A stretch of DNA of 24,000 nt from the NCBI RefSeq assembly GCF_026914305.1, contig NZ_CP113866.1:666183-690182 (forward strand). Reading direction: 5' to 3'. A model generated the notes under the pieces. That model saw only the letters and a program-made list of their open reading frames with translations. It was not told the origin of the DNA and did no database searches. Made by a program: the position numbers and the translations under genes. The stretch is from Caldicellulosiruptor acetigenus (GTDB lineage Bacteria; Bacillota; Thermoanaerobacteria; Caldicellulosiruptorales; Caldicellulosiruptoraceae). Position 1 is the first letter of the stretch; every line of letters starts with the position of its first letter. Shown here in pieces: positions 6,392 to 24,000 of this stretch.

Positions 6392-6423
6392 TTTTAAACT
6401 GCTTCCATGGAAGCAGTTTAAAA
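6392..6423. repeat. Perfect 32-nt palindrome
   Basis: TTTTAAACTGCTTCCATGGAAGCAGTTTAAAA is its own reverse complement. It lies 20 nt beyond the stop (6444-6446, minus strand) of the second IS256-family transposase relic. Confidence 0.9.
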
Positions 6424-6443
6424 TGCGAACTGGTAATCGCTAT

Positions 6444-7101
6444 CTACTTTATATACTCTCTCAAACGCTCAGGATACATTATCAAAAGCTGATTTAATAT
6501 TATATCCCAATTTCTGTACCTCTGTGTCCACTTTCTTACAACATTTTTTGTTGCAAGATAAAGCATCTTCTCTAATGCTATATCATTTGGAAACACTGAT
6601 TTTGTCTTTGTCACTTTCCTAAACTGTCTGTGAATTCCTTCTATGATGTTTGTGGTATAAATTATCTTCCTTATTCTGCGGGGGAAACTTAAAAAACGAT
6701 GTTAGTAGCTCCCAGTTGTTTTCCCAGCTTCTGAACGCATAAGGATACTGTTTCCCACACTTTTCTCTTACCTGATAAAAATTCTCCAGCGCTTCTTCTT
6801 CATTAGTTGCCTGATACACTTTCTTAAAATCCTTTGAAAATTCTTTTATATGCTTGTATGAAACATACTTGAATTAATTTCTTAGTTGATGAATAATACA
6901 CCTTTGAACATCGCTTTTAGGGAACACTGCTTCTATTGCTTCCTTTAAACCTGTCAAGCCGTCAACACAAAACAGTAGTACCTCTTCTACTCCTCTTGTT
7001 TTTAAGTCATTTAAAACACCCAACCAAAACTTGGAGCTTTCACTCTCTCCAATCCATATCCCTAAAACATCCTTATATCCTTCAATGTTAATACCTAAAA
7101 C
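6444..7101 (-). pseudogene. Second, distinct IS256-family transposase: C-terminal half only, with nonsense and frameshift lesions
   Basis: The minus-strand translation is VLGINIEGYKDVLGIWIGESESSKFWLGVLNDLKTRGVEEVLLFCVDGLTGLKEAIEAVFPKSDVQRCIIHQLRN, then a stop (TAA at 6874-6876), then FKYVSYKHIKEFSKDFKKVYQATNEEEALENFYQVREKCGKQYPYAFRSWENNWELLTSFFKFP. After a 1-nt shift at the G5/C5 run (6680-6684) it continues RIRKIIYTTNIIEGIHRQFRKVTKTKSVFPNDIALEKMLYLATKNVVRKWTQRYRNWDIILNQLLIMYPERLREYIK. The N-terminal half is cut off exactly at the left end of IS copy 2. Confidence 0.85.
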
Positions 7102-8514: not shown

Positions 8515-9528
8515 GTGGTTAAGATTCCAGCTACAATAAAAGATATAGCAAGGTATACAGGACTTTCAATAGCAACTATATCAAAGTATCTCAATGGTGG
8601 TAATGTGTTAGAAAAAAATAGGATTCTTATTGAAGAGGCAATAAAAGCGTTGGATTTTGAAGTGAATGAAATTGCAAGAGGACTCAGAACTAACAAGACA
8701 ATGACAATTGGAGTTTTGATTCCTGTTTTTGAAGTTTTCTTTAATACAATTGTATCTTCGTTAGAAAATGTCTTGCTTGAAACTGGTTATAGTGTTGTTG
8801 TATGTGATTACAGAGATGATAAAAAGTTAGAAAAGGAAAGGTTAGATTTTCTTTATAAAAAAAGAGTTGATGCATTAGTGGTTGTTCCCACATATTTGAA
8901 AGGAAGCGATATTAAAAAGATTATAAAAAGGGACATTCCAATTGTAGCAGTGGACAGACCAATTGAAGACTTTGAGTGTGATACAATACTTGTGAACAAT
9001 TTTGAAGTTTCATATCAAGCAGTTGAAAAGTTGATTTTAATGGGGCACAAAAAAATTGGAATAATATGTGGGCCGCAGAATATCTATACTGCTCAAGAAA
9101 GGTTGAATGGCTATGTGCAAGCTCATACTAATTTTAACATACCTCTAAATGAAGAATATATAAAGTTTGGAGAATTTCATAATATGGAATCAGGTTATAA
9201 AAAAATGATTGAATTACTTGAAATCCAAAATCCTCCTTCTGCTGTTTTTGTTACAAATTATGAGATGACTCTTGGTGCTATTATTGCTATAAATGAAAAA
9301 GATATAAAAGTCCCTGATGAGCTGTCAGTTATAGGCTTTGATAATTTAGAAATGGCAAGGATAGTAAAGCCATCATTATCTCTTGTGGTCCAGCCAATGG
9401 AAGAGATAGGAGAGTCTGTTGCAAGATTGCTATTGAAGAGATTAAAAGGGGATAAAAGTGATTTTCCTTTGCAAAAAAAGTTGAATGCACAAGTTTTGAT
9501 AAAGAATTCAATCAAAAAAATAGGCTAA
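8515..9528 (+). CDS. LacI-family transcriptional regulator
   Basis: 337 aa with a GTG start after GAGAGGGG. N-terminal HTH ATIKDIARYTGLSIATISKYLNGG...EEAIKALDFEVNEIARGLRT, followed by a periplasmic-binding-protein-like sugar-binding core (IGVLIP...VDRP...IGFDN). Confidence 0.9.
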   Translation: MVKIPATIKDIARYTGLSIATISKYLNGGNVLEKNRILIEEAIKALDFEVNEIARGLRTNKTMTIGVLIPVFEVFFNTIVSSLENVLLETGYSVVVCDYRDDKKLEKERLDFLYKKRVDALVVVPTYLKGSDIKKIIKRDIPIVAVDRPIEDFECDTILVNNFEVSYQAVEKLILMGHKKIGIICGPQNIYTAQERLNGYVQAHTNFNIPLNEEYIKFGEFHNMESGYKKMIELLEIQNPPSAVFVTNYEMTLGAIIAINEKDIKVPDELSVIGFDNLEMARIVKPSLSLVVQPMEEIGESVARLLLKRLKGDKSDFPLQKKLNAQVLIKNSIKKIG

Positions 9529-9628: not shown

Positions 9629-9642
9629 GCTAAACGTTTATC
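9629..9642. promoter_or_regulatory. LacI-type operator O1 (gcTAAACGTTTAtc)
   Basis: 10-bp perfect palindrome TAAACGTTTA centred at 9635/9636, immediately downstream of the predicted -10/TSS. The CG-centred AT-rich palindrome is typical of LacI/CcpA-family sites. Confidence 0.6.
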
Positions 9643-9660
9643 GTTTTGTATTTATTAAAA

Positions 9661-9674
9661 GTAAAACGTTTAGT
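9661..9674. promoter_or_regulatory. LacI-type operator O2 (gtAAAACGTTTAgt)
   Basis: Same AAACGTTT core, centred at 9667/9668. That is 32 bp (about 3 helical turns) from O1 and 36 nt upstream of the aldolase start. Confidence 0.55.
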
Positions 9675-9709
9675 TATTGATTATTCATTAAAAAAGGAAG
9701 TGAAAAGAA

Positions 9710-10546
9710 GTGGCTATTATCTCTTTGAAAGATGCTTTTGACTATGGTTTTGTAAAAACAGCAATTTGTTCTTTCAACTTTGTAAATGTCGAACAATTGT
9801 ATGGAATTGTAGCTGCTGCTGATGAGCTTCAAACTCCTGTTGTTTTAATGATTTCTCAAAAAACTGCTTTAAAATATGGACTTGAGGTAATGTTCAACTT
9901 AGCAAAATCAAAAGCTGAAAAGCTGCATACTCCGTTTGTCATTCATTTAGACCATGCAAAGAATATTGAGCTTGTTGAAAAAGCAATTAATTTAGGTTTT
10001 TCTTCAGTAATGTTTGATGGTTCATCACTCTCTTTTGATGAAAATATTAAGAAAACTTACGAAGTTGTAAAAAAAGCTCACAGATATGGGATTACAGTTG
10101 AGGGCGAAATAAATGCTATATATGGGAAGGAAGAAGATGGCCCCACAAGTGCTATTGTATACACAAAAGTAGAGGATGCCAAGAAGTTTTCAGAAGAGAC
10201 TGAGGTTGATTTTTTAGCGGTTAGTGTTGGGACAAAGCATGGACTTTATGAGGGAACGCCCTCCTTAAGGTATGATCTTATCAATGAAATTTCTAATTCA
10301 ATTAAATCAAAACTTGTTATGCATGGTTGCAGCGGGCTTACAGCTGAACAGTTAAGGAAGTCTATTCAAAGTGGAATTAAAAAGTTGAATTTTGGCACAG
10401 AAGTAATGCTAACACAGATAAATGCAATAAAAAAATCATTAGAAAATTTATCTAAACCAGATATAAGGCCAATTATGGACAGTTCAATTGATGAGATAAA
10501 GGCATATGTAAAGAACACAATTAATAGTATTAGTATTTCACAATAA
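9710..10546 (+). CDS. Class II ketose-bisphosphate aldolase (FBP/tagatose-1,6-bisphosphate aldolase family, GatY/KbaY/FbaA-like)
   Basis: 278 aa with a GTG start after AAGGAAGTGA. Family motifs present: FNFVNVEQL, HLDHAKN (Zn His), MFDGS, VEGEI, VSVGTKHGLY, VMHGCSG. The length matches the ~280-aa class IIB aldolases. Confidence 0.8.
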   Translation: MAIISLKDAFDYGFVKTAICSFNFVNVEQLYGIVAAADELQTPVVLMISQKTALKYGLEVMFNLAKSKAEKLHTPFVIHLDHAKNIELVEKAINLGFSSVMFDGSSLSFDENIKKTYEVVKKAHRYGITVEGEINAIYGKEEDGPTSAIVYTKVEDAKKFSEETEVDFLAVSVGTKHGLYEGTPSLRYDLINEISNSIKSKLVMHGCSGLTAEQLRKSIQSGIKKLNFGTEVMLTQINAIKKSLENLSKPDIRPIMDSSIDEIKAYVKNTINSISISQ

Positions 10547-10588
10547 AATTTATGAAAAAGTCAACAAAAAGGAGCGAATGTTTTAAAA

Positions 10589-11632
10589 ATGAAAGCGGCA
10601 GTTTTACACGCAAAAGGTGATATCAGATATGAAGAGGTTGAAGTTCCTAAAATAACTGAGGATGAGGTTCTTGTAAAAGTGAGGGCAAGTGGCATATGTG
10701 GGTCTGACATTCCAAGAGTATTGGGTGATGCGGCACATTTTTATCCTATCATATTAGGACATGAATTTTCTGGTGAAATTGTAGAGGTTGGCAAAAACGT
10801 TAAAAATCTTAAAATTGGCGACAGAGTGGTGGGTGCTCCGTTATTGCCATGTTTTAAGTGCAGTGATTGTCAAAAGGGTTGGTATTCGCAATGCAAAAAC
10901 TACAGTTTTATTGGATCAAGAAGGCAAGGGAGTTTTGCCGAATACATAGCGATTCCTGCAAGAAATGCTATAAAATTTGATGAAAGTATCCCTTTTGAAC
11001 AGGCTGTCTTTTTTGAACCATCAACTGTAGCTTTACATGGACTTAGGTGTGTTGATTTTAAAGGTGGCGAAGATGTTTTAGTTTTAGGTGCTGGAACAAT
11101 TGGGATTTTTACGTTACAGTGGGCAAGAATAATGGGAGCAAGACGCATCTGTGTTGTTGATATCAAAGATGAAAGATTAAAACTTGCAGAAGAGTTTGGA
11201 GCAGATTTTGTGGTAAATGCAACTGAAGAAAAGTTTACAGAAAAGATAAGTGAACTCACAAAAGGCAGAGGTTTTGGATATGTATTTGAAACAGCAGGTA
11301 GTACTGAGACAATAAAATTCTCTTTCGAATTTGTTTCAAATAAAGGTTGTGTTTGTCTTATTGGTACACCTACAAAGGATGTTGTTTTCTCACCTCATCT
11401 ATTTGAAAAAATTAATAGAAAAGAGTTTCATCTTACAGGTTCTTGGATGTCATATAGTGCCCCTTTTCCAGGCATTGAATGGGAGTTGACCTCACAGTAT
11501 TTTTCAGATAAACGCTTGAAGTTCAGCAATAAGTTGATATACAAAACCTTTCATCTAAAAGATATCAAAGAAGCATTTGAGTTATTTAAAAGTCCGGAGA
11601 ATGTGAAAGGCAAAGTAATTATTTTAAGTTAA
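10589..11632 (+). CDS. Zn-dependent polyol(-phosphate) dehydrogenase, galactitol-1-phosphate 5-dehydrogenase (GatD)-like
   Basis: 347 aa. Long motif matches to E. coli GatD as I remember it: ASGICGSDIPRVLGDAAHFYPIILGHEFSG; LLPCFKCSDCQKGWYSQCKNYSFIGSRRQGSFAEY; GAGTIG; GSWMSYSAPFPGIEWE. Confidence 0.75.
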   Translation: MKAAVLHAKGDIRYEEVEVPKITEDEVLVKVRASGICGSDIPRVLGDAAHFYPIILGHEFSGEIVEVGKNVKNLKIGDRVVGAPLLPCFKCSDCQKGWYSQCKNYSFIGSRRQGSFAEYIAIPARNAIKFDESIPFEQAVFFEPSTVALHGLRCVDFKGGEDVLVLGAGTIGIFTLQWARIMGARRICVVDIKDERLKLAEEFGADFVVNATEEKFTEKISELTKGRGFGYVFETAGSTETIKFSFEFVSNKGCVCLIGTPTKDVVFSPHLFEKINRKEFHLTGSWMSYSAPFPGIEWELTSQYFSDKRLKFSNKLIYKTFHLKDIKEAFELFKSPENVKGKVIILS

Positions 11633-11666
11633 TATATTCAAAAAATTATATAAGGAGGAATATAAA

Positions 11667-12836
11667 ATGATCAAAAGTTTTAATTACTATCAGCCCACCA
11701 GAATAATATTTGGAGTGGGCAGACGAAAAGAGCTTGGTATTTGGGCGAAACGTTTTGGGAAAAAGGTTTTAGTTGTTGTTGATCCGAATGTAGAAAAGTT
11801 TTTGTCTCAGCAGTGTCAAGAGATGTTAGATAGCCTTCATTCCGAATGTATTGAAACCATTGTATTTGATCATGTTATTCCAAATCCCACGCTTGACTCA
11901 ATCCAAGAAGGTGCAGAGGTTGCAAAAAAAGAGAAAGTTGATTTTGTAATAGGCATTGGTGGGGGAAGTGCAATTGACACAGCAAAAGCAATAGCAGTTG
12001 CAGCAACCCATGAAGGAACTGCATGGGATTATCTTTATTTTAAAAAAGAACCTACAGAAAAAACACTGCCTATAATTGGAGTTCCAACAACAGCAGGAAC
12101 AGGCACGCAAACATCAAGAGTCTCTGTGTTGACAAACACAGAAGAAAAATGCAAATCAGCAATTGCAAGTGACAATATAATATGCAAGGTTGCAATTGTA
12201 GATCCAGAGCTTACTTTAACTGTTCCTCCTGCTGTCACTGCATCAACAGGGTTTGATGTGTTTACACATTGCTTTGAGTCATACATAAATGTAAATAATC
12301 AGCCATATGTAGATATGTTGGCACTTGAGGCAATTGAAATTGTTATTAAATATTTGAAAAAAGCTTATGACAATCCAGGTGACCTTGTGGCAAGAACAAA
12401 GATGGCCTGGGCAGATACTTTAGCAGGATGTTGTTTGGCAAATGTTGGGACGACAATTCCACATGCCTTAGGTCAGGCAATTGGCGGTCATTTCCCGCAT
12501 GTAAGTCATGGTCAGAGCTTGGCAGTGGTTTACCCTGCATTTTTAGATTATACAGTGGACTGGGCTATAGAAAGGTTTGCAAAAGTGGCAAGAATTTTTA
12601 ATCCTGAGCTTGAGAAAGTATCTGACAAAGAAGCAGCCTATGCTTTGAAACAGGAAATTGTTTCATTTTTAAAATCAATCAACCTGTATTACACAATGGA
12701 GGATTTTGGAATAAAGAAAGAAGACGTTAAGGATTTGGTAAAACATGCAATAGAATTTCCTGATAACAGGGTAAATCCAAGAATTCCTGACGAAAAGGAT
12801 CTTGAAGAGCTTTATTTAAAATCGTTTAGAGACTAA
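11667..12836 (+). CDS. Iron-containing alcohol dehydrogenase family protein
   Basis: 389 aa, with RBS AAGGAGG. It has the Fe-ADH nucleotide-binding motif IGIGGGSAIDTAKAIA, GVPTTAGTGTQ and His-rich metal-site regions (FDVFTHCFESY, HALGQAIGGHFPHVSHG). Confidence 0.8.
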   Translation: MIKSFNYYQPTRIIFGVGRRKELGIWAKRFGKKVLVVVDPNVEKFLSQQCQEMLDSLHSECIETIVFDHVIPNPTLDSIQEGAEVAKKEKVDFVIGIGGGSAIDTAKAIAVAATHEGTAWDYLYFKKEPTEKTLPIIGVPTTAGTGTQTSRVSVLTNTEEKCKSAIASDNIICKVAIVDPELTLTVPPAVTASTGFDVFTHCFESYINVNNQPYVDMLALEAIEIVIKYLKKAYDNPGDLVARTKMAWADTLAGCCLANVGTTIPHALGQAIGGHFPHVSHGQSLAVVYPAFLDYTVDWAIERFAKVARIFNPELEKVSDKEAAYALKQEIVSFLKSINLYYTMEDFGIKKEDVKDLVKHAIEFPDNRVNPRIPDEKDLEELYLKSFRD

Positions 12837-12852
12837 AAAGGAGTAAGTGGGT

Positions 12853-14358
12853 ATGAGAGAATTGCTTTTGGGTATAGATATTGGAACCTCTGCCTGCAAA
12901 CTAAGCGTATTTGATAGAGAAGGGAATGTCATTTTTGATACTTCAAAACCATATAATATTTACTTTCCTCAAGAAGGGTTTGTAGAACAAGATCCCAATG
13001 AGTGGTGGGATGCTGTTGTCAACGCAATTAATGAGATGTTTGCAAAAAGTAATATCAGACCAGATGAAATAAAATCAATAGGAATTGCAGGGCAGAGTTG
13101 GTCCTGCATTCCTGTTGACAAAAATGGGAATGTCTTATCTAATACACCAATTTGGATGGACACTCGTTCTTCTTATATTTTGGAAAAAATTCGAGAAAAA
13201 ATTGATGAGAAATACATTTTTGATGTGAGCAAAAATCCTCTCAATCCCACATATTCAACACTCAAGATTTTATGGTTCAAAGAAAACAAACCTGATGTTT
13301 ATAAAAATACCTATAAGTTTTTACAGAGCAACAGCTTTATTGTTTTTAAACTTACAGATTCTTTTTCTCAGGACTTATCGCAAGGGTATGGATATCATTT
13401 CTTCAATATGGAAAAAGGCTGCTATGATGAAAAAGCTGCTGATATGTTTAGCATTGACCTTGAACTTTTACCACAAATCTATCCATGTCACCAGGTAGTA
13501 GGGTATGTATCAAAAGAAGCTGCAGAGATAACAGGTTTAAAGGAAGGCACACCTGTTGTTGCAGGAGGGTTAGATGCAGCTTGCTGCACCTTAGGTGCTG
13601 GTGTTGTTGAAGTGGGGCAAACGCAAGAACAAGGTGGGCAAGCAGGTGGCATGAGTATATGTCTTGACAGACCAGTTTCAAATCCAAAGCTTATCTTATC
13701 ATACCATGTTGTACCGGGAAGATGGCTTTTGCAAGGTGGAACTGTTGGTGGTGGAAGCTTAAGATGGTTTTATGAGCAGTTTGGTTATGAAGAAACAGAA
13801 ACTGCGAAAAGAGAAAATAAAAGTCCATTTGCTATCATGGATGAAAAAGCAGAACGGATTCCTTGTGGAGCAGAAGGCCTTATATTCTTGCCATATATGG
13901 CAGGGGAGAGGTCTCCTATCTGGGACAGAAACGCAAAGGGTATTTTCTATGGAGTGAGTTATAAAAAAACGAAGGCTCATTTTGTAAGGTCCATTATGGA
14001 AGGGTGTGCATATGCGCTGAGACATAATTTAGAAGTTGCAGAAGAGAGTGGCGTTAAAATTAATAGGCTTTATGCTGTTGGAGGAGCAGCAAATAGCAAA
14101 CTGTGGTGTCAGATAAAATCTGATGTAACTGGCAAAATCATTGAGGTGCCAATATCGGATAATGCAACAACACTCGGTGCAGCAGTATTAGCAGGATACG
14201 GTATAGGAATATTTAAAGATATCTTTAAGACTATAAAAGAAATAGTGAAGTCAAAGGCAATTTATTCACCATCCTTTGATAATTATAAGCTTTATTCGAG
14301 ATATTATGAGCAATATTTAGAAATCTATGAAAGATTAAAAGAAGTGATGAATAGATAA
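12853..14358 (+). CDS. FGGY-family carbohydrate kinase (xylulokinase-like)
   Basis: Motifs GIDIGTSACK, EQDPNEWW, IAGQ, PIWMDTRS, VGGGSLRW, GERSPIWD and VGGAANSKLW. The ORF track starts at GTG 12847, but ATG 12853 is 9 nt from GGAG (12840-12843), so I prefer it. Confidence 0.85.
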   Translation: MRELLLGIDIGTSACKLSVFDREGNVIFDTSKPYNIYFPQEGFVEQDPNEWWDAVVNAINEMFAKSNIRPDEIKSIGIAGQSWSCIPVDKNGNVLSNTPIWMDTRSSYILEKIREKIDEKYIFDVSKNPLNPTYSTLKILWFKENKPDVYKNTYKFLQSNSFIVFKLTDSFSQDLSQGYGYHFFNMEKGCYDEKAADMFSIDLELLPQIYPCHQVVGYVSKEAAEITGLKEGTPVVAGGLDAACCTLGAGVVEVGQTQEQGGQAGGMSICLDRPVSNPKLILSYHVVPGRWLLQGGTVGGGSLRWFYEQFGYEETETAKRENKSPFAIMDEKAERIPCGAEGLIFLPYMAGERSPIWDRNAKGIFYGVSYKKTKAHFVRSIMEGCAYALRHNLEVAEESGVKINRLYAVGGAANSKLWCQIKSDVTGKIIEVPISDNATTLGAAVLAGYGIGIFKDIFKTIKEIVKSKAIYSPSFDNYKLYSRYYEQYLEIYERLKEVMNR

Positions 14359-14376
14359 AAAAGAGGCGAATTTTAG

Positions 14377-15666
14377 ATGAGTCCTCAAAATCTATTGTTA
14401 GATTTATTTAAAAATAGGGAAAAAGGATTTAAGGGTATTATTTCAGTTTGTTCTTCAAATGAAATAGTCTTAGAAGCAGTTTTGAAAAGAATGAAGGATA
14501 CAAATCTACCAATTATTATTGAGTCTACCGCAAACCAGGTAAATCAATTTGGTGGATATTCTGGGCTTACACCATCTCAGTTTAAAAAAAAGGTTATCAA
14601 AATTGCTCAAAAAGTTGATTTTCCACCTGACAGAATAATTCTTGGTGGGGACCATCTTGGACCATTTGTGTGGCGTGACCAGGAACCAGAAATTGCAATG
14701 GAGTATGCTAAGCAAATGATAAAAGAATACATAAAAGCAGGTTTTACCAAAATTCACATTGACACAAGTATGCCTTTAAAAGGTGAAAACAGCATAGATG
14801 ATGAAATAATTGCTAAAAGAACTGCTGTGCTCTGCAGGATTGCGGAGGAGTGTTTTGAGAAGATTTCTATAAACAATACTCATATTACAAGACCTGTTTA
14901 TGTGATAGGAGCTGATGTACCACCTCCCGGCGGAGAGTCTTCTATCTGTCAAACAATTACTACTAAAGAGGAATTAGAAAGAAGTTTAGAATATTTCAAA
15001 GAAGCATTTAAAAAGGAAGGAATTGAACATATATTCGATTATGTAGTTGCCGTTGTTGCAAATTTTGGAGTCGAATTTGGGAGCGATGAAATTGTTGATT
15101 TTGATATGGAAAAAGTAAGGCCGCTAAAAGAGCTTTTGGGAAAGTACAATATAGTATTTGAAGGGCATTCTACAGATTATCAGACAAAGGAAAACTTAAA
15201 AAGAATGGTCGAATGTGGTATTGTAATTTTAAAGGTTGGTCCTGCTCTAACATTTGCGTTGCGTGAGGCATTAGTAGCCCTTAGTCATATTGAAGAAGAA
15301 ATTTATTGCAATGAAAAGGAGAAACTGTCAAGGTTTAGAGAAGTTTTATTGAATACTATGCTAACATGCAAAGATCACTGGAGTAAATATTTTGATGAAA
15401 ATGATAAATTAATTAAGTTAAAGCTTCTATATAGCTATCTTGACAGATGGAGATACTATTTTGAAAACGAGAGTGTGAAAAGTGCTGTTTATTCTCTTAT
15501 TGGAAATTTAGAGAATGTTAAAATTCCACCTTGGCTTATTAGTCAGTATTTTCCCTATCAGTACCAAAAGATGAGAAAAAAAGATTTAAAAAATGGTGCG
15601 ACCGAGCTAATATTAGATAAAATAGGGGAAGTCATAGACAGTTATGTTTATGCTGTAAAAAAATAA
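14377..15666 (+). CDS. GatZ/KbaZ/AgaZ-family protein (tagatose-bisphosphate aldolase accessory subunit / tagatose-6-phosphate 4-epimerase family)
   Basis: 429 aa. [17 protein letters not shown]...[24 protein letters not shown]...[11 protein letters not shown]...[10 protein letters not shown] parallels E. coli GatZ (GICSVCSAHP...[23 protein letters not shown]...[11 protein letters not shown]...FSKIHLDASM) as I recall it. Confidence 0.85.
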   Translation: [429 protein letters not shown]

Positions 15667-15830
15667 AAGGCGTTTGAATTTTTTTGAATTTTATAATTTA
15701 AGCAATAATTCTCAACAATAAATTTTATGCTTTTGGGCAATTCATCAAAACAAAAGTTAATTATTTATATAAATAGCGTTATGACAAAACTGCAAGATAG
15801 AATTTTTTAATAACAAATTATAAAATATGC

Positions 15831-15859
15831 TTGACTTTTAAAAAATGATTGATTATAAT
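15831..15859 (+). promoter_or_regulatory. Near-consensus sigma-A promoter upstream of the fucI relic
   Basis: TTGACT (15831-15836), an exactly 17-nt spacer, then TATAAT (15854-15859). Confidence 0.65.
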
Positions 15860-15896
15860 TTTAAATAGAAAAACAAATGTTGTGTTTAAGTTAAAT

Positions 15897-15910
15897 ATAA
15901 AACGTTTCGT
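15897..15910. promoter_or_regulatory. LacI-type operator O3 (atAAAACGTTTCgt)
   Basis: Same AAACGTTT core as O1/O2, centred at 15903/15904, about 38 nt downstream of the predicted TSS. Confidence 0.5.
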
Positions 15911-16054
15911 GAGAGTGACACACATCTCGGGCAGTTAAAGAGAATGAGATTTAAAAAAAGTGGATCGAGAAAGATTTTTCATGTAGTTCCTTAGCAGCGC
16001 AAGCAAATCTAACATCAAATATCTCAAATACCTTATGAAAGAGGGTGTTATGAC

Positions 16055-16264
16055 TTGCAAAATAAAAATGATAAATACACAATTGACATTGGCGAAAAAC
16101 GTTTTGTTGAAGACTATCCCAAAGTTGGAATTAGTCCTACTATAGATGGCAGATATGGTGGTGTAAGAGAATCATTAGAGGAACAAACATGAAAATTAGC
16201 ACAGTCTGTGGCAGAGGTTATAGAAAACAATGTTTATTTACCAATCATGCTTAACAAGGTATGA
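16055..16264 (+). pseudogene. fucI: L-fucose isomerase, N-terminal relic (about 45-69 of ~590 codons)
   Basis: TTG 16055 lies 9 nt after GAAAGAGGG. The translation [45 protein letters not shown] is followed by TGA (16190-16192). The same frame continues KLAQSVAEVIENNVYLPIMLNKV to TGA at 16262-16264. [23 protein letters not shown] matches the FucI N-terminus (E. coli: [23 protein letters not shown]). This ORF is too short to appear in the supplied track. Confidence 0.75.
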
Positions 16265-16331
16265 CTATTAATAAAAACAGAATTAATCTATTTTCATGCT
16301 AACAATATTGCAAATGAAAGGAGATATAATT

Positions 16332-17282
16332 ATGGAATCTTCAATCTGGAATAGAAGAAAAATTAATTGGAAAAATATATGGGCTCAACGTTATATTATG
16401 ATATTAGTATTACCCGTAGTTTTATGGATGATAATTTTTAATTATTTACCAATGCTAGGTTTGATTATAGCTTTTAAAGAATATGATCCTTTTTTAGGCC
16501 CTTTAAAAGGATTTTTAGAAAGTAAGTGGGTAGGAATAGATAATTTTAAAGAAATGTTTACAGACAAATATTTTTGGCAAGCATTGTGGAATACAATTTA
16601 TTATAGTGTATTAAATTTAATAGTTGGTTTTCCTTTTGCAATTTTATTTGCTATTTTATTAAATGAAATACCAAATATGTGGTATAAAAGATTTGTGCAG
16701 ACGGTTAGTTATTTGCCATACTTTATTTCTTGGGTTTTTGTTATTGGTTACATTTATATTATCTTGGCGGATAATGGTATTGTAAATGATGTGTTGCTTA
16801 AACTTCATATAATTGATAAACCGATACCATTTCTTGTAACACCTGACTTTGTTCCACCTATAGTAGTGTTGAGTAATTTATGGAAGTCATTTGGTTGGAA
16901 TGCAATAATATTTATTGCAGCTATTACAAATATAGATCCAACATTGTTTGAAGCTGCAATAGTTGATGGGGCAGGTCGATTTGCCAGAATAAGGTATGTT
17001 ACTTTACCATCAATAAAACCTACCATTATTATATTACTAATATTTAATATTGCAGGAATAATGACTAATTATGGGATGTTTGAACAAATGTATCTTTTAT
17101 CGAATGGAGCAATTCAAGATGCTACTGAGATTATTGACACTTATACATTTAAGATAGGTATTGTTTTATCTAGATTTTCATATGCTACAGCAGTAGGGTT
17201 GTTTAGATCAGTGGCTGCAGTTGTTTTATTAGTTTGGGCTAATTCAATATCTAAAAAGCTTACGGGCGAAAGTTTATATTAA
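16332..17282 (+). CDS. Carbohydrate ABC transporter permease (CUT1, LplB/YteP-type)
   Basis: Multi-TM protein with the binding-protein-dependent permease EAA-loop region (EAAIVDGAGRFARIRYVTLPSIKP). The track ORF starts at 16296, but ATG 16332 lies 8 nt after AAAGGAG (16317-16323). Confidence 0.85.
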   Translation: MESSIWNRRKINWKNIWAQRYIMILVLPVVLWMIIFNYLPMLGLIIAFKEYDPFLGPLKGFLESKWVGIDNFKEMFTDKYFWQALWNTIYYSVLNLIVGFPFAILFAILLNEIPNMWYKRFVQTVSYLPYFISWVFVIGYIYIILADNGIVNDVLLKLHIIDKPIPFLVTPDFVPPIVVLSNLWKSFGWNAIIFIAAITNIDPTLFEAAIVDGAGRFARIRYVTLPSIKPTIIILLIFNIAGIMTNYGMFEQMYLLSNGAIQDATEIIDTYTFKIGIVLSRFSYATAVGLFRSVAAVVLLVWANSISKKLTGESLY

Positions 17283-17306
17283 TAGATGCAGTAAGGAGGA
17301 GTAAAA

Positions 17307-18185
17307 GTGAGAATTAGAAGGAAAAGTACTGGCGATATTATTTTCGATGTTTTAAATAATTTGTTTATGTTTATAGTAGTAATAATTACATTATATCCGT
17401 TTTATTACATTATAATTTCTTCCTTTAATGATCCTATAGATTTATTAAAAGGCCCTGTATATCTATGGCCAAGAAAATTTTCAGTGGTTAATTACATATA
17501 TATTTTTCAAGAAAAAGCTATTTTAAATGCGGCGTTTATAACAGTTGCAAGAACAATAATAGGAAGCGCAGCTGCTGTTTTATTTACTGCTGCATTTGCA
17601 TATGGTATTTCAAGGAAATGGTTAATAGGAAGGAATTTATTTATAAAAATGGCGATAATAACAATGTACTTCAGTGGAGGATTAATCCCTACATATTTAC
17701 TTATAACGCGTTTTTTAAATTTAGCAGGCAACTTTCTTGTTTTTATTATTCCTAATTTGTTCAATGCTTATAATGCGTTTATTATGTATTCATTTTTTAA
17801 AGGAATACCTGTCGAAATAGAAGAGTCTGCCAAAATAGATGGGGCAAATGATATTATAATCTTTTTTAAATTGATTCTTCCTTTGAGTTTACCTATACTT
17901 GCTACAATTGCTTTGTTTAATGGTGTATGGCATTGGAATTCTTGGTTTGATGCGTTGTTATATGGAGAAGGAAAATTAGAAACATTACCATTATATTTAG
18001 TTAGGGCTATTCAGTCAGCTACTGCAAGTGCAGAAGCAGCGAGATTTGTTTCAACAACAGGTATAACATCCACGTCTATAAGACTGACTACTATGGTAGT
18101 TACTACATTTCCTATAACGATAGTGTATCCATTTCTTCAGAAGTATTTTGTTAAAGGCATAATGATAGGTGCTTTGAAGGATTAG
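17307..18185 (+). CDS. Carbohydrate ABC transporter permease (CUT1, LplC/MalG-type)
   Basis: 292 aa with a GTG start after AAGGAGGAG. It has six predicted hydrophobic segments and the EAA loop EESAKIDGANDIIIFFKLILPLSLP. Confidence 0.85.
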   Translation: MRIRRKSTGDIIFDVLNNLFMFIVVIITLYPFYYIIISSFNDPIDLLKGPVYLWPRKFSVVNYIYIFQEKAILNAAFITVARTIIGSAAAVLFTAAFAYGISRKWLIGRNLFIKMAIITMYFSGGLIPTYLLITRFLNLAGNFLVFIIPNLFNAYNAFIMYSFFKGIPVEIEESAKIDGANDIIIFFKLILPLSLPILATIALFNGVWHWNSWFDALLYGEGKLETLPLYLVRAIQSATASAEAARFVSTTGITSTSIRLTTMVVTTFPITIVYPFLQKYFVKGIMIGALKD

Positions 18186-18244
18186 ATTTACAGGTTCATT
18201 TTTTGATTGATAGTTTTGTTTGAGGAGGTGATTATAAATATGTG

Positions 18245-18291
18245 GCTAAACGATTCGTCTTAATTTGGTGGTTTATAATAAAACGCTTAAT
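18245..18291. promoter_or_regulatory. Pair of degenerate LacI-type operator-like sites upstream of the SBP gene
   Basis: gCTAAACGATTCgt (18245-18258) and atAAAACGCTTAat (18278-18291). Each is one core mismatch away from half-site combinations seen in O1-O3, and the centres are 33 bp apart, mirroring the 32-bp O1-O2 spacing. Confidence 0.35.
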
Positions 18292-18372
18292 GTTTGTTTT
18301 AGCGGAGTAGGAAAAGATTAAATAACATAATCTAAAAATTAACAATTTAAAGAAAAAGAAGGAGGAGGAAAA

Positions 18373-20058
18373 ATGAATAAAAGGTATTTCAAAGTAATTT
18401 CAATACTTATAGTTTTCGCTTTAATAGTTTCTTTAGTCTCCATTGGATATGTTTATAAAAATGAAGTTAAAGCAGCTTCATCTAGTAAAACTGCGACACA
18501 GGGTGCAAAAGTAAAGTATTCTTGGCAAAAAGATACATCGCCTTTTAAATTTGATTTGTATTTTTTCGGCGCATGGGGTTCATTTTATCGTTGGAATGGT
18601 GCTCTCGTAGAAAAGTGGATTACTGAGGCAACGGGAGTTACTCCAAATATTATTGTGCCTACAGGGGATGAAAAACAGTATCTTAACGTTATGATTGCTT
18701 CTAATAATTTACCTGATGCTATGGTACTTGAATGGTATGCTCCAGAAACAAAAAGACTTATTAAGGCAGGAAAAATATATTCGGTGAACGAATTGTGTCA
18801 AAAATATGCACCAGAATTTTGGGACATGATACCAAAAGAAGTAAAAGAATATCATAAATTTGATGACGGTAAGCTTTATTATATTCCATCATTTTTCACT
18901 ACCAAAGAAGAATACGAACAAGGTTTGGAAAAGCATAATGCAAGGCCATTGTTTATTCAAAGAGGAATATATAAAGCTTTAGGAAATCCAAAAATTAATT
19001 CACCAGATGATTTGATTAATTTGTTAAGGACAATAAAGAAAAAATATCCTAATTTAAAACCATTTGCAATAGAACCTCCAATTGATGTAAATCAGTGGGG
19101 ACTTACGGGTAGCTTAACTTTAGCATTTTTTGCAGGGATTTTTGCACCAGAGACATATGGAAGAGACGTTTATCTTGATGCAAAAGGAAATATAAAATTT
19201 ATTTTTGAAAATCAGAATTTTATTGAGGCTGTAAGATTTTTGAATAAAATTTATAGGGAAGGTTTAATCACATCATATGAATTGATGATGAAACATGAGA
19301 ATTATCAAGATTTAGTAGAATCAGCCAAATATGCCGTTATAGCCCGATTCCCAATAGATATTTGGAAGCAACATAATCCAAAAATTCTAAAACTTACTAA
19401 AGATGAAGGTAAGACATATATGCCATTACCTTATTTTAAATATAAAGGCAAGAATCCTCAATTTGCGGGCGGTAGAGGAGCAGGTTGGGTTGGTTCTATG
19501 GTAACGAAAAACGCCAAGAATCCAGGAAGAATAATTAGATATTTTGAATATAGTTGGTCTGATGAAGGACAACTAACAAATCTATTTGGCAAAAAAGACG
19601 TTACGTATTATATTGATAAAAATGGAATGCCAAGATATAAACCAGAAGTTTTGAAAGAATTACAGGATAATCCAGCAAGCTTAGATACTAAGTATGGATT
19701 TGAAAGAAGATTATTAATGTGGAGATCAAAATGGGCAGGATGGCAGAGAATAGCAATGGCACCTAAAGAATATGAAGATTACTTAAGATCAGTTGCACGT
19801 TATGGTGTAGATATTTGGAATCTAGGTCTTGATAATCTTGACCCAGATCCAACTACTAAAGAAGGAGTTTCTTATGCGAAAATCAAAAATATATGGAACA
19901 AATATCTTGTACAGATGGTATTAGCTAAAGATGATAATACCTTTAAGAAGGCTTATGAAAGTGCATTGAAAGAAATGAAGAATGCAGGTTTAGAGCAGGT
20001 AAGAAAAGTTATGTATCAGAACCATTTGAAAGATTTGGCAAAGAAAAAAGGTATGTAA
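18373..20058 (+). CDS. Extracellular solute-binding protein, large LplA-type (oligosaccharide-binding)
   Basis: 561 aa, with RBS AAGGAGGAGG. It has an N-terminal hydrophobic anchor (KVISILIVFALIVSLVSIGYVY). The size and gene order (permease-permease-SBP) are those of LplABC-type CUT1 systems. There is no lipobox Cys. Confidence 0.8.
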   Translation: MNKRYFKVISILIVFALIVSLVSIGYVYKNEVKAASSSKTATQGAKVKYSWQKDTSPFKFDLYFFGAWGSFYRWNGALVEKWITEATGVTPNIIVPTGDEKQYLNVMIASNNLPDAMVLEWYAPETKRLIKAGKIYSVNELCQKYAPEFWDMIPKEVKEYHKFDDGKLYYIPSFFTTKEEYEQGLEKHNARPLFIQRGIYKALGNPKINSPDDLINLLRTIKKKYPNLKPFAIEPPIDVNQWGLTGSLTLAFFAGIFAPETYGRDVYLDAKGNIKFIFENQNFIEAVRFLNKIYREGLITSYELMMKHENYQDLVESAKYAVIARFPIDIWKQHNPKILKLTKDEGKTYMPLPYFKYKGKNPQFAGGRGAGWVGSMVTKNAKNPGRIIRYFEYSWSDEGQLTNLFGKKDVTYYIDKNGMPRYKPEVLKELQDNPASLDTKYGFERRLLMWRSKWAGWQRIAMAPKEYEDYLRSVARYGVDIWNLGLDNLDPDPTTKEGVSYAKIKNIWNKYLVQMVLAKDDNTFKKAYESALKEMKNAGLEQVRKVMYQNHLKDLAKKKGM

Positions 20059-20126: not shown

Positions 20127-22406
20127 ATGAAACAAAAAAATTCTTTTAAGTATGACATGTTAGATTTTGATTTACCTGAAGCCCAAAATGATATTTTATG
20201 GATTGCTGAAATGGCTGAAGAAGTATATGAGCAATGTGATGGTTCTGTGATTATAAAAATACCTTTTCAAGCTCAAAAGAAAGAAGTGTTTGTTCCAGAT
20301 GCAACAAAAGAAAAGAAATATTATTATATGGAAATTAAAGCGTATGGTGATGCTATTGTTAGATGTTCTATTTCTTTTAGTGGAAGGTTCATAGAAGATA
20401 GTAATAATCCCATGATAGAATGGGATCCATCGTTAAAGCAGGTAAAACTTTATGTAACAAAAAATAAGAATGGATGGGATATAATAGATGATAATAAAGT
20501 TGTAAGGATGAGAGTAAATAACGTTAAAAAACCAACAAGGAAATGGAGTAATTTGCATCCCGAACCACAATATTTTTTTGATGCTACTATTTTCCCTGAT
20601 GGAATAGTAGCAATACCTTTTATGGCTAATGATACATTTACACCCGGTATTGTGGAATCTGTGAGTTTAGGATATGTAGAACGTGATGGAAAAGCGGATA
20701 GGTGTGTTTTTGCGCTTCACTCAGAATATAATGAAAAATTTGCTGGAACAGGAGAAAGGTTTGCTCCTATGAATCTTTCCGGGAAAACAATAATTTTAGA
20801 GAATAACGATGCTTTAGGAGTTAATAATCGGAGAGCATATAAAAATGTTCCGTTTTATATATCGAGTAAAGGTTATGGGTTACTTATAATGACATCTGCT
20901 CACGTAAGACTTTCATTAGCTGATATATCAACAAGAGCAGTGCAAGCTTTAATAGAGGATGATGTGTTGGATTTATTTTTCATAGGTGGAGGAGAACCTG
21001 AAAGAATTATTTATAACTATAGAAGAATTACAGGTTTTCCTCGTAAGGTGCCTGTTTGGTCATATGGAATATGGATGAGTAGGATGTCTTATTTTTCTGC
21101 TGAAGAGACTTTTGATGTTGCCAAAAAATTAAGAGAAAATAAATTTCCTTGTGATGTAATTCATTTAGATACTGGATGGTTTAAAAAAGATTGGCAGTGT
21201 GATTGGGAGTTTGATGAAGAAAGATTTCCTAATCCCCAGGAGTATATCAGAAACATGCATGAAATGGGGTTCAAAATTTCAGTTTGGCAACTTCCTCATG
21301 TTGCGGCAGAAACAAAACATTATAATGTAGCAGTAGAAAATAAGTTTATTTCTAAATTAACTAATAAGCCTGAAGAAGGTACATCTAATTTTGGAGATGT
21401 AGAATACAGAGGAGTAATTGATTTTACAAATCCAAAAGCAGTGGAGTGGTATCAAAATTTGTTGAAAAACTTATTTGATTTAGGTGTAGATGTTATTAAA
21501 ACTGATTTTGGCGAAAACATAGATATGAATGCGGAATATTTTTCAATGGAACCAAAGAAGTTACATAATCTTTACTCTTTACTTTATCAAAAGGCAGCCT
21601 TTGAAATCACAGAAAAAGTTAAAGGGAAAGACCAAGCTATTATATGGGCAAGAGCAGGCTGGATAGGATGTCAACGATATCCAGTTCATTGGGGTGGTGA
21701 TAGTAGCAGTACATGGGACGGTTTGGCAGCCACAATTCGAGGTGGTTTACATCTTGGTGTATCAGGCTTTGGTTTTTGGAGTCATGATGTTCCTGGATTT
21801 CACGGCCTTCCAGATTTTATGAATAATTGGCCAGATGATGATATTTATGTTCGCTGGACTCAGGTTGCAGTATTTACTTCTCATATTCGATATCATGGGG
21901 CTTCACCACGAGAACCCTATAATTATCCTAATGTATCAGACATTGTTAGAGAATGGTGGAAATTACGTTATGCATTAATACCATATTTTGTTGAGCAGGG
22001 TGAAAAGGTTACAAAGACAGGTTATCCATTTATAAGAGCATTGTTTATTCATCATCCTGATGATGAATATTGTTGGTACATTGATGATGAATTTTATTGC
22101 GGTGATATTTTCTTAGTAGCTCCGATCATAAATTCTGCTGGTAAAAGAAACATTTATTTACCCAAAGGAAATTGGATAGATTTTTGGTCAGGAGAATTTA
22201 TTGAAGGTCCTGTTATGCTAAAAGATGTTTATTTTCCACTAGAAAAAATGCCTATATATTGTGTTGCCGGTTCTGAACTTAAAGTATATCCGTACATGGT
22301 ACAGCATACGGGTGAAATAGAATTTGATAAAGCAGTAACAATAATTTTTGATCATACGTACAAAGGCTTTTCTAAATCAATACTTGGGAGAATAATAAAA
22401 TTATAA
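20127..22406 (+). CDS. Glycoside hydrolase family 31, alpha-xylosidase (YicI/XylS)-like
   Basis: 759 aa, with RBS GAGGAGG. It has the catalytic-nucleophile motif VIKTDFGE, and the acid/base region YPVHWGGDSSSTWDGLAATIRGGLHLGVSGFGFWSHDVPGF closely parallels E. coli YicI (FPVHWGGDCYANYESMAESLRGGLSIGLSGFGFWSHDIGGF). Confidence 0.8.
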   Translation: MKQKNSFKYDMLDFDLPEAQNDILWIAEMAEEVYEQCDGSVIIKIPFQAQKKEVFVPDATKEKKYYYMEIKAYGDAIVRCSISFSGRFIEDSNNPMIEWDPSLKQVKLYVTKNKNGWDIIDDNKVVRMRVNNVKKPTRKWSNLHPEPQYFFDATIFPDGIVAIPFMANDTFTPGIVESVSLGYVERDGKADRCVFALHSEYNEKFAGTGERFAPMNLSGKTIILENNDALGVNNRRAYKNVPFYISSKGYGLLIMTSAHVRLSLADISTRAVQALIEDDVLDLFFIGGGEPERIIYNYRRITGFPRKVPVWSYGIWMSRMSYFSAEETFDVAKKLRENKFPCDVIHLDTGWFKKDWQCDWEFDEERFPNPQEYIRNMHEMGFKISVWQLPHVAAETKHYNVAVENKFISKLTNKPEEGTSNFGDVEYRGVIDFTNPKAVEWYQNLLKNLFDLGVDVIKTDFGENIDMNAEYFSMEPKKLHNLYSLLYQKAAFEITEKVKGKDQAIIWARAGWIGCQRYPVHWGGDSSSTWDGLAATIRGGLHLGVSGFGFWSHDVPGFHGLPDFMNNWPDDDIYVRWTQVAVFTSHIRYHGASPREPYNYPNVSDIVREWWKLRYALIPYFVEQGEKVTKTGYPFIRALFIHHPDDEYCWYIDDEFYCGDIFLVAPIINSAGKRNIYLPKGNWIDFWSGEFIEGPVMLKDVYFPLEKMPIYCVAGSELKVYPYMVQHTGEIEFDKAVTIIFDHTYKGFSKSILGRIIKL

Positions 22407-22435
22407 AAACTAAATAAAATGGGAGGGAAAAGCAA

Positions 22436-23884
22436 ATGATAATAACTATTTTTCCACAACATAAATTAGGAAAAATAAGTAAATTCTGGACAAAATGTGT
22501 AGGTAGCTGTCACGCTGCAACTGCGCTGAGGGAAGATTGGAGAAATCAGCTAAGAAAATGCAGGCAAGAGCTTGGTTTTGAGTATGTCAGATTTCATGGC
22601 TGGCTTAACGATGATATGAGTGTTTGTTTTAGAAATGATGAAGGCAAACTCTGGTTTTCATTTTTCAACATGGATTCTATAATTGACTTTTTACTGGATA
22701 TTGGAATGAAGCCTTTCATAGAACTGAGTTTTATGCCTGAGGCTTTAGCATCTGGTACAAAGACAGTTTTTCATTACAAAGGCAATATAACTCCACCAAA
22801 ATCATATGAAGAGTGGGGACAGCTTATTGAAGAGCTTGCAAGACATCTTGTAAAAAGGTATGGGAAGAATGAAGTAAGAGAATGGTTTTTTGAGGTATGG
22901 AATGAACCAAATTTGAAGGACTTTTTCTGGGCAGGGACAATGGAAGAGTATTTTGAGCTTTACAAACATGCGGCGTTTGCAATCAAGAAAGTGGATTCTG
23001 AGCTGAAAGTAGGAGGACCTGCATCAGCAATAGATGCATGGATTCCAGAGCTAAAAGAGTTTTGTACAAAGAACGGTGTACCGATAGATTTTATTTCAAC
23101 ACACCAGTATCCAACAGATTTAGCGTTCAGCACAAGTTCGAACATGGAAGAGGCTATGGCAAAGGCAAAGAGAGGAGAACTTGCTGACAGGGTAAAGAAG
23201 GCTTTGAGTGAAGCATATCCTTTGCCTGTTTATTATACTGAATGGAACAACTCGCCAAGTCCGCGTGATCCGTATCATGACATTCCATATGATGCAGCAT
23301 TTATTGTAAAGACCATAATAGATATTGTTGATTTGCCACTGGGCTGTTATTCATACTGGACGTTCACAGACATATTTGAGGAATGTGGTCAGAGTTCATT
23401 ACCTTTCCATGGAGGGTTTGGACTTTTGAATATTCACGGTATACCAAAACCGTCATACAGAGCGTTTCAAATCTTGAATAAATTGAATGGAGAAAGAGTG
23501 GAAATAAAAACGGATGAGGAGAGTGAAACTATTGATTGTGTTGCAGCAAATGATGGTGAAAAAATAGTGTTAATAGTTTCAAACCATAATGTTCCCTTAT
23601 CACCTATAAAAACTGAAAATATAAAAGTAATAGTTGAAGGTTTGAAAAATTGTCATACAGTAGTTATAGAAAGGATTGATGAATATAATGCAAATCCAAA
23701 GAGAAAGTGGGTTGAGATGGGCAGCCCCGAATATCTTACAAAAGAACAAATAGAAGAATTAATAAAAGTTTCAGAAATTAAAAAAGAACAAATTTCTTGT
23801 GAAAGAATAAGTGAAGAAGCAGTTAAATTTGAATTTGATATACTTCCACATTCAGTGGTGGCTATAACAATTAACTATAAGTAA
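22436..23884 (+). CDS. xynB: Glycoside hydrolase family 39 beta-xylosidase
   Basis: 482 aa. FEVWNEPNL (acid/base Glu), YYTEWN (nucleophile Glu), HGGFGLLNIHGIPKPSY and SYWTFTDIFEE are all colinear with Thermoanaerobacterium XynB as I recall it. The gene symbol is given by analogy only. Confidence 0.85.
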   Translation: MIITIFPQHKLGKISKFWTKCVGSCHAATALREDWRNQLRKCRQELGFEYVRFHGWLNDDMSVCFRNDEGKLWFSFFNMDSIIDFLLDIGMKPFIELSFMPEALASGTKTVFHYKGNITPPKSYEEWGQLIEELARHLVKRYGKNEVREWFFEVWNEPNLKDFFWAGTMEEYFELYKHAAFAIKKVDSELKVGGPASAIDAWIPELKEFCTKNGVPIDFISTHQYPTDLAFSTSSNMEEAMAKAKRGELADRVKKALSEAYPLPVYYTEWNNSPSPRDPYHDIPYDAAFIVKTIIDIVDLPLGCYSYWTFTDIFEECGQSSLPFHGGFGLLNIHGIPKPSYRAFQILNKLNGERVEIKTDEESETIDCVAANDGEKIVLIVSNHNVPLSPIKTENIKVIVEGLKNCHTVVIERIDEYNANPKRKWVEMGSPEYLTKEQIEELIKVSEIKKEQISCERISEEAVKFEFDILPHSVVAITINYK

Positions 23885-23929
23885 AAAATATACCGAATAG
23901 GTTCAAAAAATTTTTAAAGAGGTGTCATT

Positions 23930-24000
23930 ATGAATTCGCAAAGTTTAAAAATAATTTTCGATAAACCAGCAAGCTGTTGGGAAGAGGCACTTCCAATAGG
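23930..24000 (+). CDS. Probable GH95 alpha-L-fucosidase, first 23 codons (continues beyond window)
   Basis: MNSQSLKIIFDKPASCWEEALPIG resembles the GH95 N-terminal motif (...PA..WEEALPIGNGRLG...). RBS AAAGAGGTG lies 6 nt upstream. The fragment is very short. Confidence 0.5.
   Translation, partial: MNSQSLKIIFDKPASCWEEALPI

Follow-up and report, generated by a model that had tools for sequence, protein, structure and literature searches.

The described system closest to the locus considered here is the fucI-alfA operon of Caldicellulosiruptor bescii together with the FucR regulon to which it belongs (Rodionov et al., 2021, mSystems, PMC8579813). In that species the regulator FucR (Athe_2074) is encoded beside the L-fucose isomerase gene fucI, the transcription start site (TSS) of fucI-alfA has been mapped at -329, and tandem FucR sites have been described in the 5' untranslated region (UTR), the sites being predictions placed relative to the mapped TSS. 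According to the same study the FaxABC transporter belongs to the FucR regulon in both C. acetigenus and C. kronotskyensis, and so do, in C.kro, C.dan and C.ace, the 'new fucose pathway enzymes' KbaY, GatD, AdhB, a kinase and GatZ (Data Set S2). FucI itself is scored as absent ('-') in C.ace and as '#' in C.kro, a symbol which, by analogy with the GanBC row, appears to mean truncated; neither the gene remnant nor the junction reported below is described there. This study concerns a stretch of 24,000 nucleotides (nt) from C. acetigenus (positions 666,183 to 690,182 of contig NZ_CP113866.1, assembly GCF_026914305.1; hereafter the window), in which a relic of fucI with a FucR-controlled promoter would now head an operon of transporter and glycosidase genes, an explanation to which, taken as a whole, we give a probability of about 0.8. 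This DNA also corresponds to contig ATXO01000020.1 of assembly GCA_000421725.1, which belongs to C. acetigenus DSM 7040 (PMC10019236). Four transporter-bearing lineages sharing the same synteny were compared, namely the window, C. kronotskyensis, a lineage represented by loci L042-L044 (hereafter L042) and another represented by loci L038-L041 (hereafter L038).

The interval between the gatZ stop (15666) and the ATG of the first permease gene (16332) measures 665 nt, and the uninterrupted FucI open reading frame (ORF) of about 600 amino acids (aa) is absent from it. What is found instead is a stub whose frame starts with TTG at 16055 and, after 45 codons, runs into an in-frame TGA at 16190-16192 (16055..16192, + strand), and which is recognized as FucI by Pfam, PDB and tblastn alike. 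Read across the stop, it matches the Fucose_iso_N1 family (PF07881, E=3e-11, residues 21-62), the match spanning only positions 1-42 of the 169 in the profile; the 45 aa alone match PF07881 with E=4e-6, and D-arabinose and L-fucose isomerases in the PDB match the frame with E=1.5e-11 to 3e-6. With C. bescii FucI as the tblastn query, residues 3-61 align to 16067-16243 at 80% identity. Beyond the stop the same frame continues as KLAQSVAEVIENNVYLP and then as IMLNKV followed by a stop codon; nucleotide alignments assign the first of these, 17 codons (16193..16244, + strand; 80% nt identity to C. bescii fucI), to fucI up to the deletion junction. Similarity ends at 16244/16245, in codon 61-62 of the gene. 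There was no Pfam match in the stub to the second N-terminal domain (PF07882) or to the C-terminal catalytic domain (PF02952). No second FucI fragment was found at E<=10 by tblastn with C. bescii FucI over the window and about 17 kb of fetched downstream DNA (loci L045 and L002), and no 3' remnant of fucI at the far end of the transporter block within those 17 kb. From its sequence, the stub is best described as a decaying pseudogene relic of fucI encoding no enzyme.

Intact FucI proteins of 604-606 aa were found in several Caldicellulosiruptor and Anaerocellum species by searching with a closely related fucI fragment. The most informative is that of Anaerocellum danielii Wai35.B1 (GCA_000955725.1, locus L049), a complete 606-aa gene product that begins with the sequence of the stub (MQNKRNEYTVNIGEKRF...EEHTWKLAQAVAEFIENNIYLP), unusual N-terminus included. 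The 243 nt upstream of this gene align to the window, with the promoter, operator box, leader, ribosome-binding site (RBS) and start codon in common, so the window carries an authentic fucI promoter and leader. The A. danielii promoter reads TTGACT-17-TATACT and its box reads GTAAAACGTTTCG; a second box lies in codons 15-17, as in the stub, and the upstream kbaY-gatD-adhB-kinase genes are also those of the window. The differences are that fucI is complete and is followed by the GH29 gene alfA, that the faxABC block is lacking, and that the leader is 30 nt shorter than in the window. A unitary pseudogene should have an intact counterpart in a related genome with matching regulatory DNA beside it, as is seen here, and by comparison with the A. 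danielii gene codons 1-61, some 10% of the whole, have been kept and around 545 of 606 codons have been lost. Where the window has TGA at 16190, both A. danielii and L042 have a Trp codon (TGG), the stop being a single G-to-A change of it.

The breakpoint can be set by the same comparison. The window reads ..TTACCAA before the junction and TCATG after it, against ..TTGCCTAA followed by TGGAG in A. danielii, and the 3' junction of the window is also found in L042, where it is seen in the independent read sets of L042-L044. The initial annotation, which was made from the letters alone, had described a fucI remnant with its own promoter, operator and RBS facing ABC-transporter genes, had put the loss at about 90% of the gene and the end of similarity near 16245, and had proposed that a relative with an intact gene would define the breakpoints and that the 45-69-codon translation should match FucI. 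All of this agrees with the searches and with the A. danielii locus. The same annotation had seen the junction bracketed by a direct repeat of 12/13 nt, and that part did not stand: the repeat exists (TCATGCTTAACAA at 16245-16257 and TCATGCTAACAA at 16294-16305) but encloses 36 nt of spacer and not the inserted block. The second copy reads TCTTGTTTTAATAA in L042, which is the closest relative and shares the junction, and the repeat is absent from the other lineages; it was rejected as a junction signature and carries no information on the event.

Elsewhere in the genus the fucI locus is plastic in its gene order, as far as the sequenced loci show, with fucR-fucI-alfA in C. bescii and fucR-fucI-CUT2 transporter-pfkB-alfA in C. 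hydrothermalis. In the latter (L046, 4430-9494) two LacI-family genes of 338 aa precede fucI, about 3 kb apart with no called genes between them, and the CUT2 transporter that follows fucI is broken by an insertion sequence (IS; DUF772) ahead of pfkB and GH29. A scan of metagenome contigs with a fucI DNA pattern gave 17 loci, all of them unrelated fucI genes matching a 20-mer only, and no further stubs.

The fucI promoter of the window consists of TTGACT (15831-15836) and TATAAT (15854-15859) separated by 17 nt (15831..15859, + strand); 11 of its 12 positions agree with the consensus, and it ranks first among the sites of a 1-kb scan, in line with the near-perfect promoter claimed before. Both hexamers and the first operator box are invariant in an alignment of the four transporter-bearing lineages, and in A. 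danielii the -35 hexamer and the box are unchanged while the -10 hexamer reads TATACT. Hexamer spacing and promoter-to-box distance are equal to those of the C. bescii fucI promoter, for which the TSS has been mapped. That the promoter might not be fucI's own was briefly suggested by the C. bescii fucI upstream region, which outside the boxes is not alignable with the window, and was ruled out by the A. danielii ortholog.

The promoter is followed by a 5' leader of about 189 nt (15866..16054, + strand), recognized by homology to the leader of A. danielii fucI. A stretch of about 30 nt in it (..GTGGATCGAGAAAGATTTTTCATGTAGTTCC.., approximately 15950-15985) is present in the window, L042 and C. 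kronotskyensis and missing from A. danielii, and this difference accounts for the spacing of 194-197 nt between the two operator boxes in the former three lineages as against 165 nt in A. danielii. No Rfam family reached its gathering score anywhere in the window, and the predicted fold of the leader is unremarkable (z-score -0.47). A riboswitch, T-box or other structured leader RNA was rejected on these two results, together with the 30-nt indel relative to A. danielii and the different leader of L038.

The LacI-family gene of the window (fucR, 8515..9528, + strand; Pfam LacI and Peripla_BP) is 80% identical to the regulator encoded beside C. bescii fucI, and its first 60 aa, which include the helix-turn-helix (HTH), are identical. 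Its putative operator has the core AAACGTTT, of which the window holds five copies against 0.45 expected, an 11-fold excess that none of 100 shuffles reached; the copies lie almost only in the regulatory regions of this locus, with two 5' of kbaY, one in the fucI leader, one in the stub (16097) and one within adhB. A motif scan placed box 1 (AAAACGTTTCGT, 15899..15910, core 15900-15907), the operator already noted by the initial annotation, some 35 nt downstream of the predicted TSS, and box 2 (AAAACGTTTTGT, 16096..16107), which that annotation had missed, in stub codons 14-17 (E-K-R-F); the two form a direct repeat matching at 11 of 12 positions, 197 nt apart. The remaining two boxes (9629..9675, cores 9632-9639 and 9664-9671) stand upstream of the kbaY operon. 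There the versions GCTAAACGTTT and GTAAAACGTTTAG are found, which also occur upstream of C. bescii fucI; they are labelled as FucR-binding sites in Fig. S1 of PMC8579813, where ..aaagctAAACGTTTcaca.. is marked as a site.

The core of box 1 is invariant in the four transporter-bearing lineages and A. danielii. With the mapped TSS placed on the C. bescii locus (L017), the first C. bescii box falls at about +35, as does box 1 of the window when its TSS is assumed to lie some 6 nt after the -10 hexamer. Common to both systems are orthologous FucR proteins whose HTH is identical, a 17-nt spacer in the sigma-A promoter, a AAACGTTT-core site at about +35 and a second site further along a long leader. 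The two differ in that fucI is a 61-codon relic in the window and is followed by a CUT1 transporter, GH31, GH39 and GH95 instead of forming fucI-alfA, in that the second operator lies in former coding sequence in the window and in the 5' UTR in C. bescii, and in that the upstream DNA cannot be aligned outside the boxes. With the cognate fucR in the locus and AAACGTTT-core sites between the promoter and the first gene, the predicted assignment of these boxes to FucR is well founded.

The copy within adhB, which encodes an iron-dependent alcohol dehydrogenase (Fe-ADH), is found at 11748-11755 and again coincides with K-R-F codons (..WAKRFGKK..). It is kept in L038 (5616) and in A. danielii (L049:1314) and absent from L042, and may either act as a FucR site within the gene or reflect chance in the choice of codons. 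In L038 an extra AAACGTTT box lies at 11953, in the gap between permease 2 and the binding-protein gene; none is present at the matching place in the window.

The location of box 2 inside dead coding sequence raises the question of why the stub persists at all. Possibly, although we consider it doubtful, the fragment has been co-opted as cis-regulatory DNA, box 2 being needed along with box 1 for tight repression through a tandem roadblock or looping; such a role refines the explanation favoured here and does not exclude it. Two boxes follow the promoter in every lineage; apart from all lineages with a stub, box 2 occurs within the coding sequence of A. danielii fucI and in the stubless L038, and tandem FucR sites are what Rodionov et al. 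(2021, PMC8579813) described for C. bescii fucI. The spacing is 166 nt in L038 and 215 nt in C. bescii, where both boxes are in the 5' UTR. In L038 the stub is unrecognizable and the DNA between the boxes shows no significant similarity to its A. danielii counterpart; even so, a perfect AAACGTTT flanked by TTG.TGAA lies 166 nt after box 1, close to the 165 nt of A. danielii, and about 0.005 such 8-mers would be expected by chance in 240 nt. The Arg codon within box 2 is CGT in the genes that carry the box and AGA in C. bescii fucI, which reads AAAAGATTT at this position and has its second box in the 5' UTR. Against these observations, eight invariant bases across a shallow tree are not significant alone, and the local alignment of L038 with the window at box 2 is no better than that of shuffled sequences, 48 of 500 of which reach the observed score; neither this alignment nor the inter-box comparison gives statistical support for homology of the L038 leader to the stub. 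The stub also runs 140 nt past box 2 in the window, which co-option leaves unexplained, and the spacings of 165, 197 and 215 nt are not in a consistent helical phase for what is in any case a predicted operator. Conservation of the box in former coding sequence is therefore suggestive only of a working operator, which may help to explain why the stub persists. A fuller version would have the fragment survive as codons 14-17 (GAA AAA CGT TTT) because they form a promoter-distal FucR operator required in cis, the loss of fucI being tolerated because the kbaY-gatD-adhB-kinase-gatZ operon would supply a route that turns L-fucose into a phosphorylated ketose without the isomerase; this combination seems unlikely to us. 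One possible form of such a route is a reduction-oxidation polyol bypass involving the Fe-ADH and the GatD-like zinc-dependent alcohol dehydrogenase (Zn-ADH).

From these comparisons the fucI promoter and the FucR operators most likely drive and regulate the transporter and glycosidase operon. Between 15860 and 16367 a scan detected neither a terminator-like site nor a promoter-like one on the + strand, and the one 8-bp hairpin in the spacer (16245-16264) is not followed by a U-tract; these results match the earlier claim that nothing terminates between promoter and transporter genes and the earlier proposal of a probable promoter capture, the latter further supported by the invariance of promoter and box 1 and by the placement of FaxABC in the FucR regulon (PMC8579813). 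Less probable than either version of co-option is that the old promoter is silent or irrelevant, the operon being driven from a promoter of its own in the 87-nt spacer or by read-through from kbaY-gatZ. Spacers as rich in A and T as this one always hold weak -10-like hexamers, and no terminator-like site was found in the scan after gatZ, so that read-through from the upstream operon could contribute too. On the other side, the region 16265-16331, in which a separate promoter would, by the initial annotation, have spoken against capture, gave no + strand promoter-like site, and the spacer with the permease RBS (16245..16331, + strand; GAAAGGAG at 16316-16323), delimited by conservation, is itself poorly conserved: only its last 31 nt are kept in C. 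kronotskyensis, and in L038 it is missing, with the permease RBS directly 3' of the leader. The fucI promoter, in contrast, is invariant, and in A. danielii it stands behind a different upstream gene, which indicates that it travels with fucI and not with gatZ. Compared with known gene remnants left by promoter capture, the locus shows the usual features of a 5' fragment retained with promoter, operator and RBS and of downstream genes that would inherit the regulation; nothing about it is unusual, and there is neither a mobile-element scar at the junction nor a fusion protein.

Decay has proceeded differently in each lineage. The ORF is 45 codons long in the window, 43 in C. kronotskyensis, 33 in L042 and 0 in L038, and the start codon is ATG or TTG. 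L042 retains TGG at codon 46 but is cut short at codon 34 by a TAT-to-TAG change; in C. kronotskyensis TAA TAA follows codon 43 and the post-stop fucI codons are gone; and the 467-nt interval of L038 gave no tblastn match to FucI. In the window the start has changed from ATG to TTG, Arg27 of the conserved GIRP motif has become Ser, and TGG46 is now TGA; GIRP, invariant in FucI, has been altered separately to GISP, GVRS and GIKP in the different lineages. Comparing the stub copies with one another and with A. danielii gives ratios of nonsynonymous to synonymous differences per site (pN/pS) of 0.27-0.72, each class counting no more than 3-11 substitutions, as against 0.07-0.12 for pairs of intact fucI and 0.09-0.10 for the adjacent permease. 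Independent lesions and relaxed constraint across lineages are again what would be seen in a unitary pseudogene.

That the 45-codon frame is instead a true small gene, or a leader peptide, which the genus has conserved and whose translation matters for expression of the operon, is very improbable. Gene callers do predict a small ORF in two species, of 45 aa here and 43 aa in C. kronotskyensis, a plausible RBS (GAAAGAGGG, 16037-16045) precedes the stub frame, and the stub is 91% identical at the nt level between the window and C. kronotskyensis. The C. kronotskyensis 2002 product, annotated as 'L-fucose isomerase 1 domain protein' (ADQ45463.1), occupies the same position ahead of the same transporter, GH31 and GH39 genes with 81% aa identity; it differs in starting with ATG, in ending at codon 43, in the loss of the 17 post-stop codons and in a shorter, diverged spacer. 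Retention of a short ORF in relatives had been named by the initial annotation as an argument against a relic, and an annotated ORF does exist in this species, but the stops differ, one lineage has no stub, and neither ORF length nor purifying selection is kept among the relatives as in a conserved leader peptide. In-frame FucI homology also runs beyond the window's stop. By these comparisons the short ORF is a decaying pseudogene and not a conserved small gene. A 718-aa, high-GC protein (P0263) that was clustered at 90% identity with the 43-aa stub product (cluster of P0002) is unrelated and was set aside as a clustering artefact. It is hardly conceivable that the truncation and stop are sequencing or assembly errors in an intact fucI, a reading for which nothing was found to speak, since two recorded contigs, consistent with a draft and a closed assembly and one of them of 2.74 Mb, carry the identical 45-aa ORF, the same junction recurs in the independent read sets of L042-L044, and about 1.6 kb of the gene is missing rather than one base.

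Several observations besides the possible read-through from gatZ weigh against the explanation preferred here, that of a relic fucI whose promoter now serves the transporter operon. No genome in which faxABC directly follows an intact fucI was found. The leader is 84% identical to that of C. kronotskyensis, against 94% for the neighbouring coding DNA, and conservation of the leader as a whole is therefore no evidence of function. The pN/pS of the stub stays below 1, and both the use of the promoter and repression by FucR in this strain are what we infer from sequence.

The order of events that we infer begins with an ancestor of at least C. acetigenus DSM 7040 and the L042 lineage, which would have lost an A. 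danielii-type fucI from codon 62 on. This deletion would have joined the 5' end of fucI to the leader of a CUT1 transporter and glycosidase block (FaxABC, GH31, GH39, GH95, GH127 and others), after which the stub would have decayed neutrally with separate lesions in each lineage. Retention of the sigma-A promoter and of the tandem AAACGTTT operators for FucR, a repressor of the LacI family, would have joined the uptake and trimming of fucosylated oligosaccharides to the regulon of the upstream kbaY-gatD-adhB-kinase-gatZ operon. As the junction is common to the window and L042, the deletion is older than their split, with the nonsense mutations following afterwards. Two histories fit these data: the block may have arrived and replaced fucI, or an internal deletion may have removed most of fucI from an older fucI-faxABC operon. 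A deletion simultaneous with the arrival of the block is plausible.

Upstream of the relic, the kbaY-gatD-adhB-FGGY kinase-gatZ operon (9710..15666, + strand; Pfam and NCBIfam), made up of the 'new fucose pathway enzymes', encodes a class-II ketose-bisphosphate aldolase, the GatD-like Zn-ADH, the Fe-ADH, the FGGY kinase and GatZ; only the aldolase passes a curated NCBIfam cut-off, that of the 'ketose-bisphosphate aldolase' subfamily model. Directly 3' of the gatZ stop a perfect tandem duplication of TTTGAATTTT is found (15673-15692), with a single copy in L042. Downstream, the faxABC-like CUT1 ABC transporter (16332..20058, + strand; Pfam BPD_transp_1) comprises permeases at 16332-17282 and 17307-18185 and a binding protein at 18373-20058, the two permeases and extracellular binding protein expected of a CUT1 system. 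Permease 1 scores above the Pfam BPD_transp_1 cut-off and permease 2 just under it (23.7 vs 26.4 bits); the 561-aa binding protein gave weak matches to SBP_bac_8 and DUF3502 only. The draft annotation starts permease 1 at an ATG at 16296 (328 aa); the start at 16332 (316 aa) is supported by the RBS GAAAGGAG and the N-terminus MESS..., which are kept in all lineages. GH31 (20127-22406), GH39 (22436-23884) and GH95 (from 23930, running off the window) follow (20127..24000, + strand; domain searches). The GH95 gene cited in the initial annotation is therefore real, though it begins at the very edge of the window, the glycosidases within the window being GH31 and GH39. Further along the contig GH127, GH51, GH4 and a second GH31 are encoded.

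At 90% identity or more the transporter is confined to a small Caldicellulosiruptor cluster. Relatives outside the genus, found with permease 1 at no more than 69% identity in other phyla, have a two-component system or an AraC regulator upstream and no fucI, and were used as an outgroup only. On the left flank about 4 kb of IS debris (4450-8410) separates rpsR from fucR; it includes part of an ISL3 transposase on the minus strand (4572-4910), a Mutator-family transposase broken by a frameshift (5143-5508 and 5447-6241) and more Mutator pieces (7509-8407). In place of this debris L038, L042 and C. bescii have a GH106 gene upstream of fucR, and the left flank has thus been rearranged in this strain. 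Outside Caldicellulosiruptor, locus L048 of an unrelated assembly (GCA_964612975.1, CAZTGC010000003.1, 1-11812) carries LacI, GatD, AdhB, FGGY kinase, GatZ, GH95, GH127 and an intact fucI in one row, and the whole of it is free of AAACGTTT boxes. Physical linkage of the 'new fucose pathway' genes to fucI and GH95 thus exists outside the genus as well, under a different operator, and these functions are grouped elsewhere too.

The isomerase appears, from the genomes searched, to have been lost in C. acetigenus, as no intact FucI of this species or of C. kronotskyensis was present among the best 120 FucI matches (all at least 74% identical to the C. bescii-type fucI fragment used as query). The suggestion of the initial annotation that this strain may be unable to isomerise fucose agrees with that result and with the score of FucI as absent in PMC8579813, but has to be set against the adjacent FucR-regulated operon, proposed there as a 'new fucose pathway', which may bypass FucI.

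The annotation of the C. kronotskyensis stub and the membership of FaxABC in the FucR regulon (PMC8579813) were already known; new in this study are the origin of the arrangement, the junction and the pattern of decay. The 45-aa 'gene' of C. acetigenus and the 43-aa protein of C. kronotskyensis should be marked as fucI pseudogene remnants. The locus is a real but ordinary case of operon remodelling, a clean and well-dated example that does not overturn current understanding. It would explain how a horizontally patchy transporter and glycosidase block, apparently aimed at fucosylated hemicellulose oligosaccharides, came under FucR control having brought no regulator of its own. At least two Caldicellulosiruptor species keep fucosidases and the FucR regulon without FucI, and the operon of the 'new fucose pathway' thereby becomes a concrete candidate for fucose utilisation by a route that needs no isomerase.

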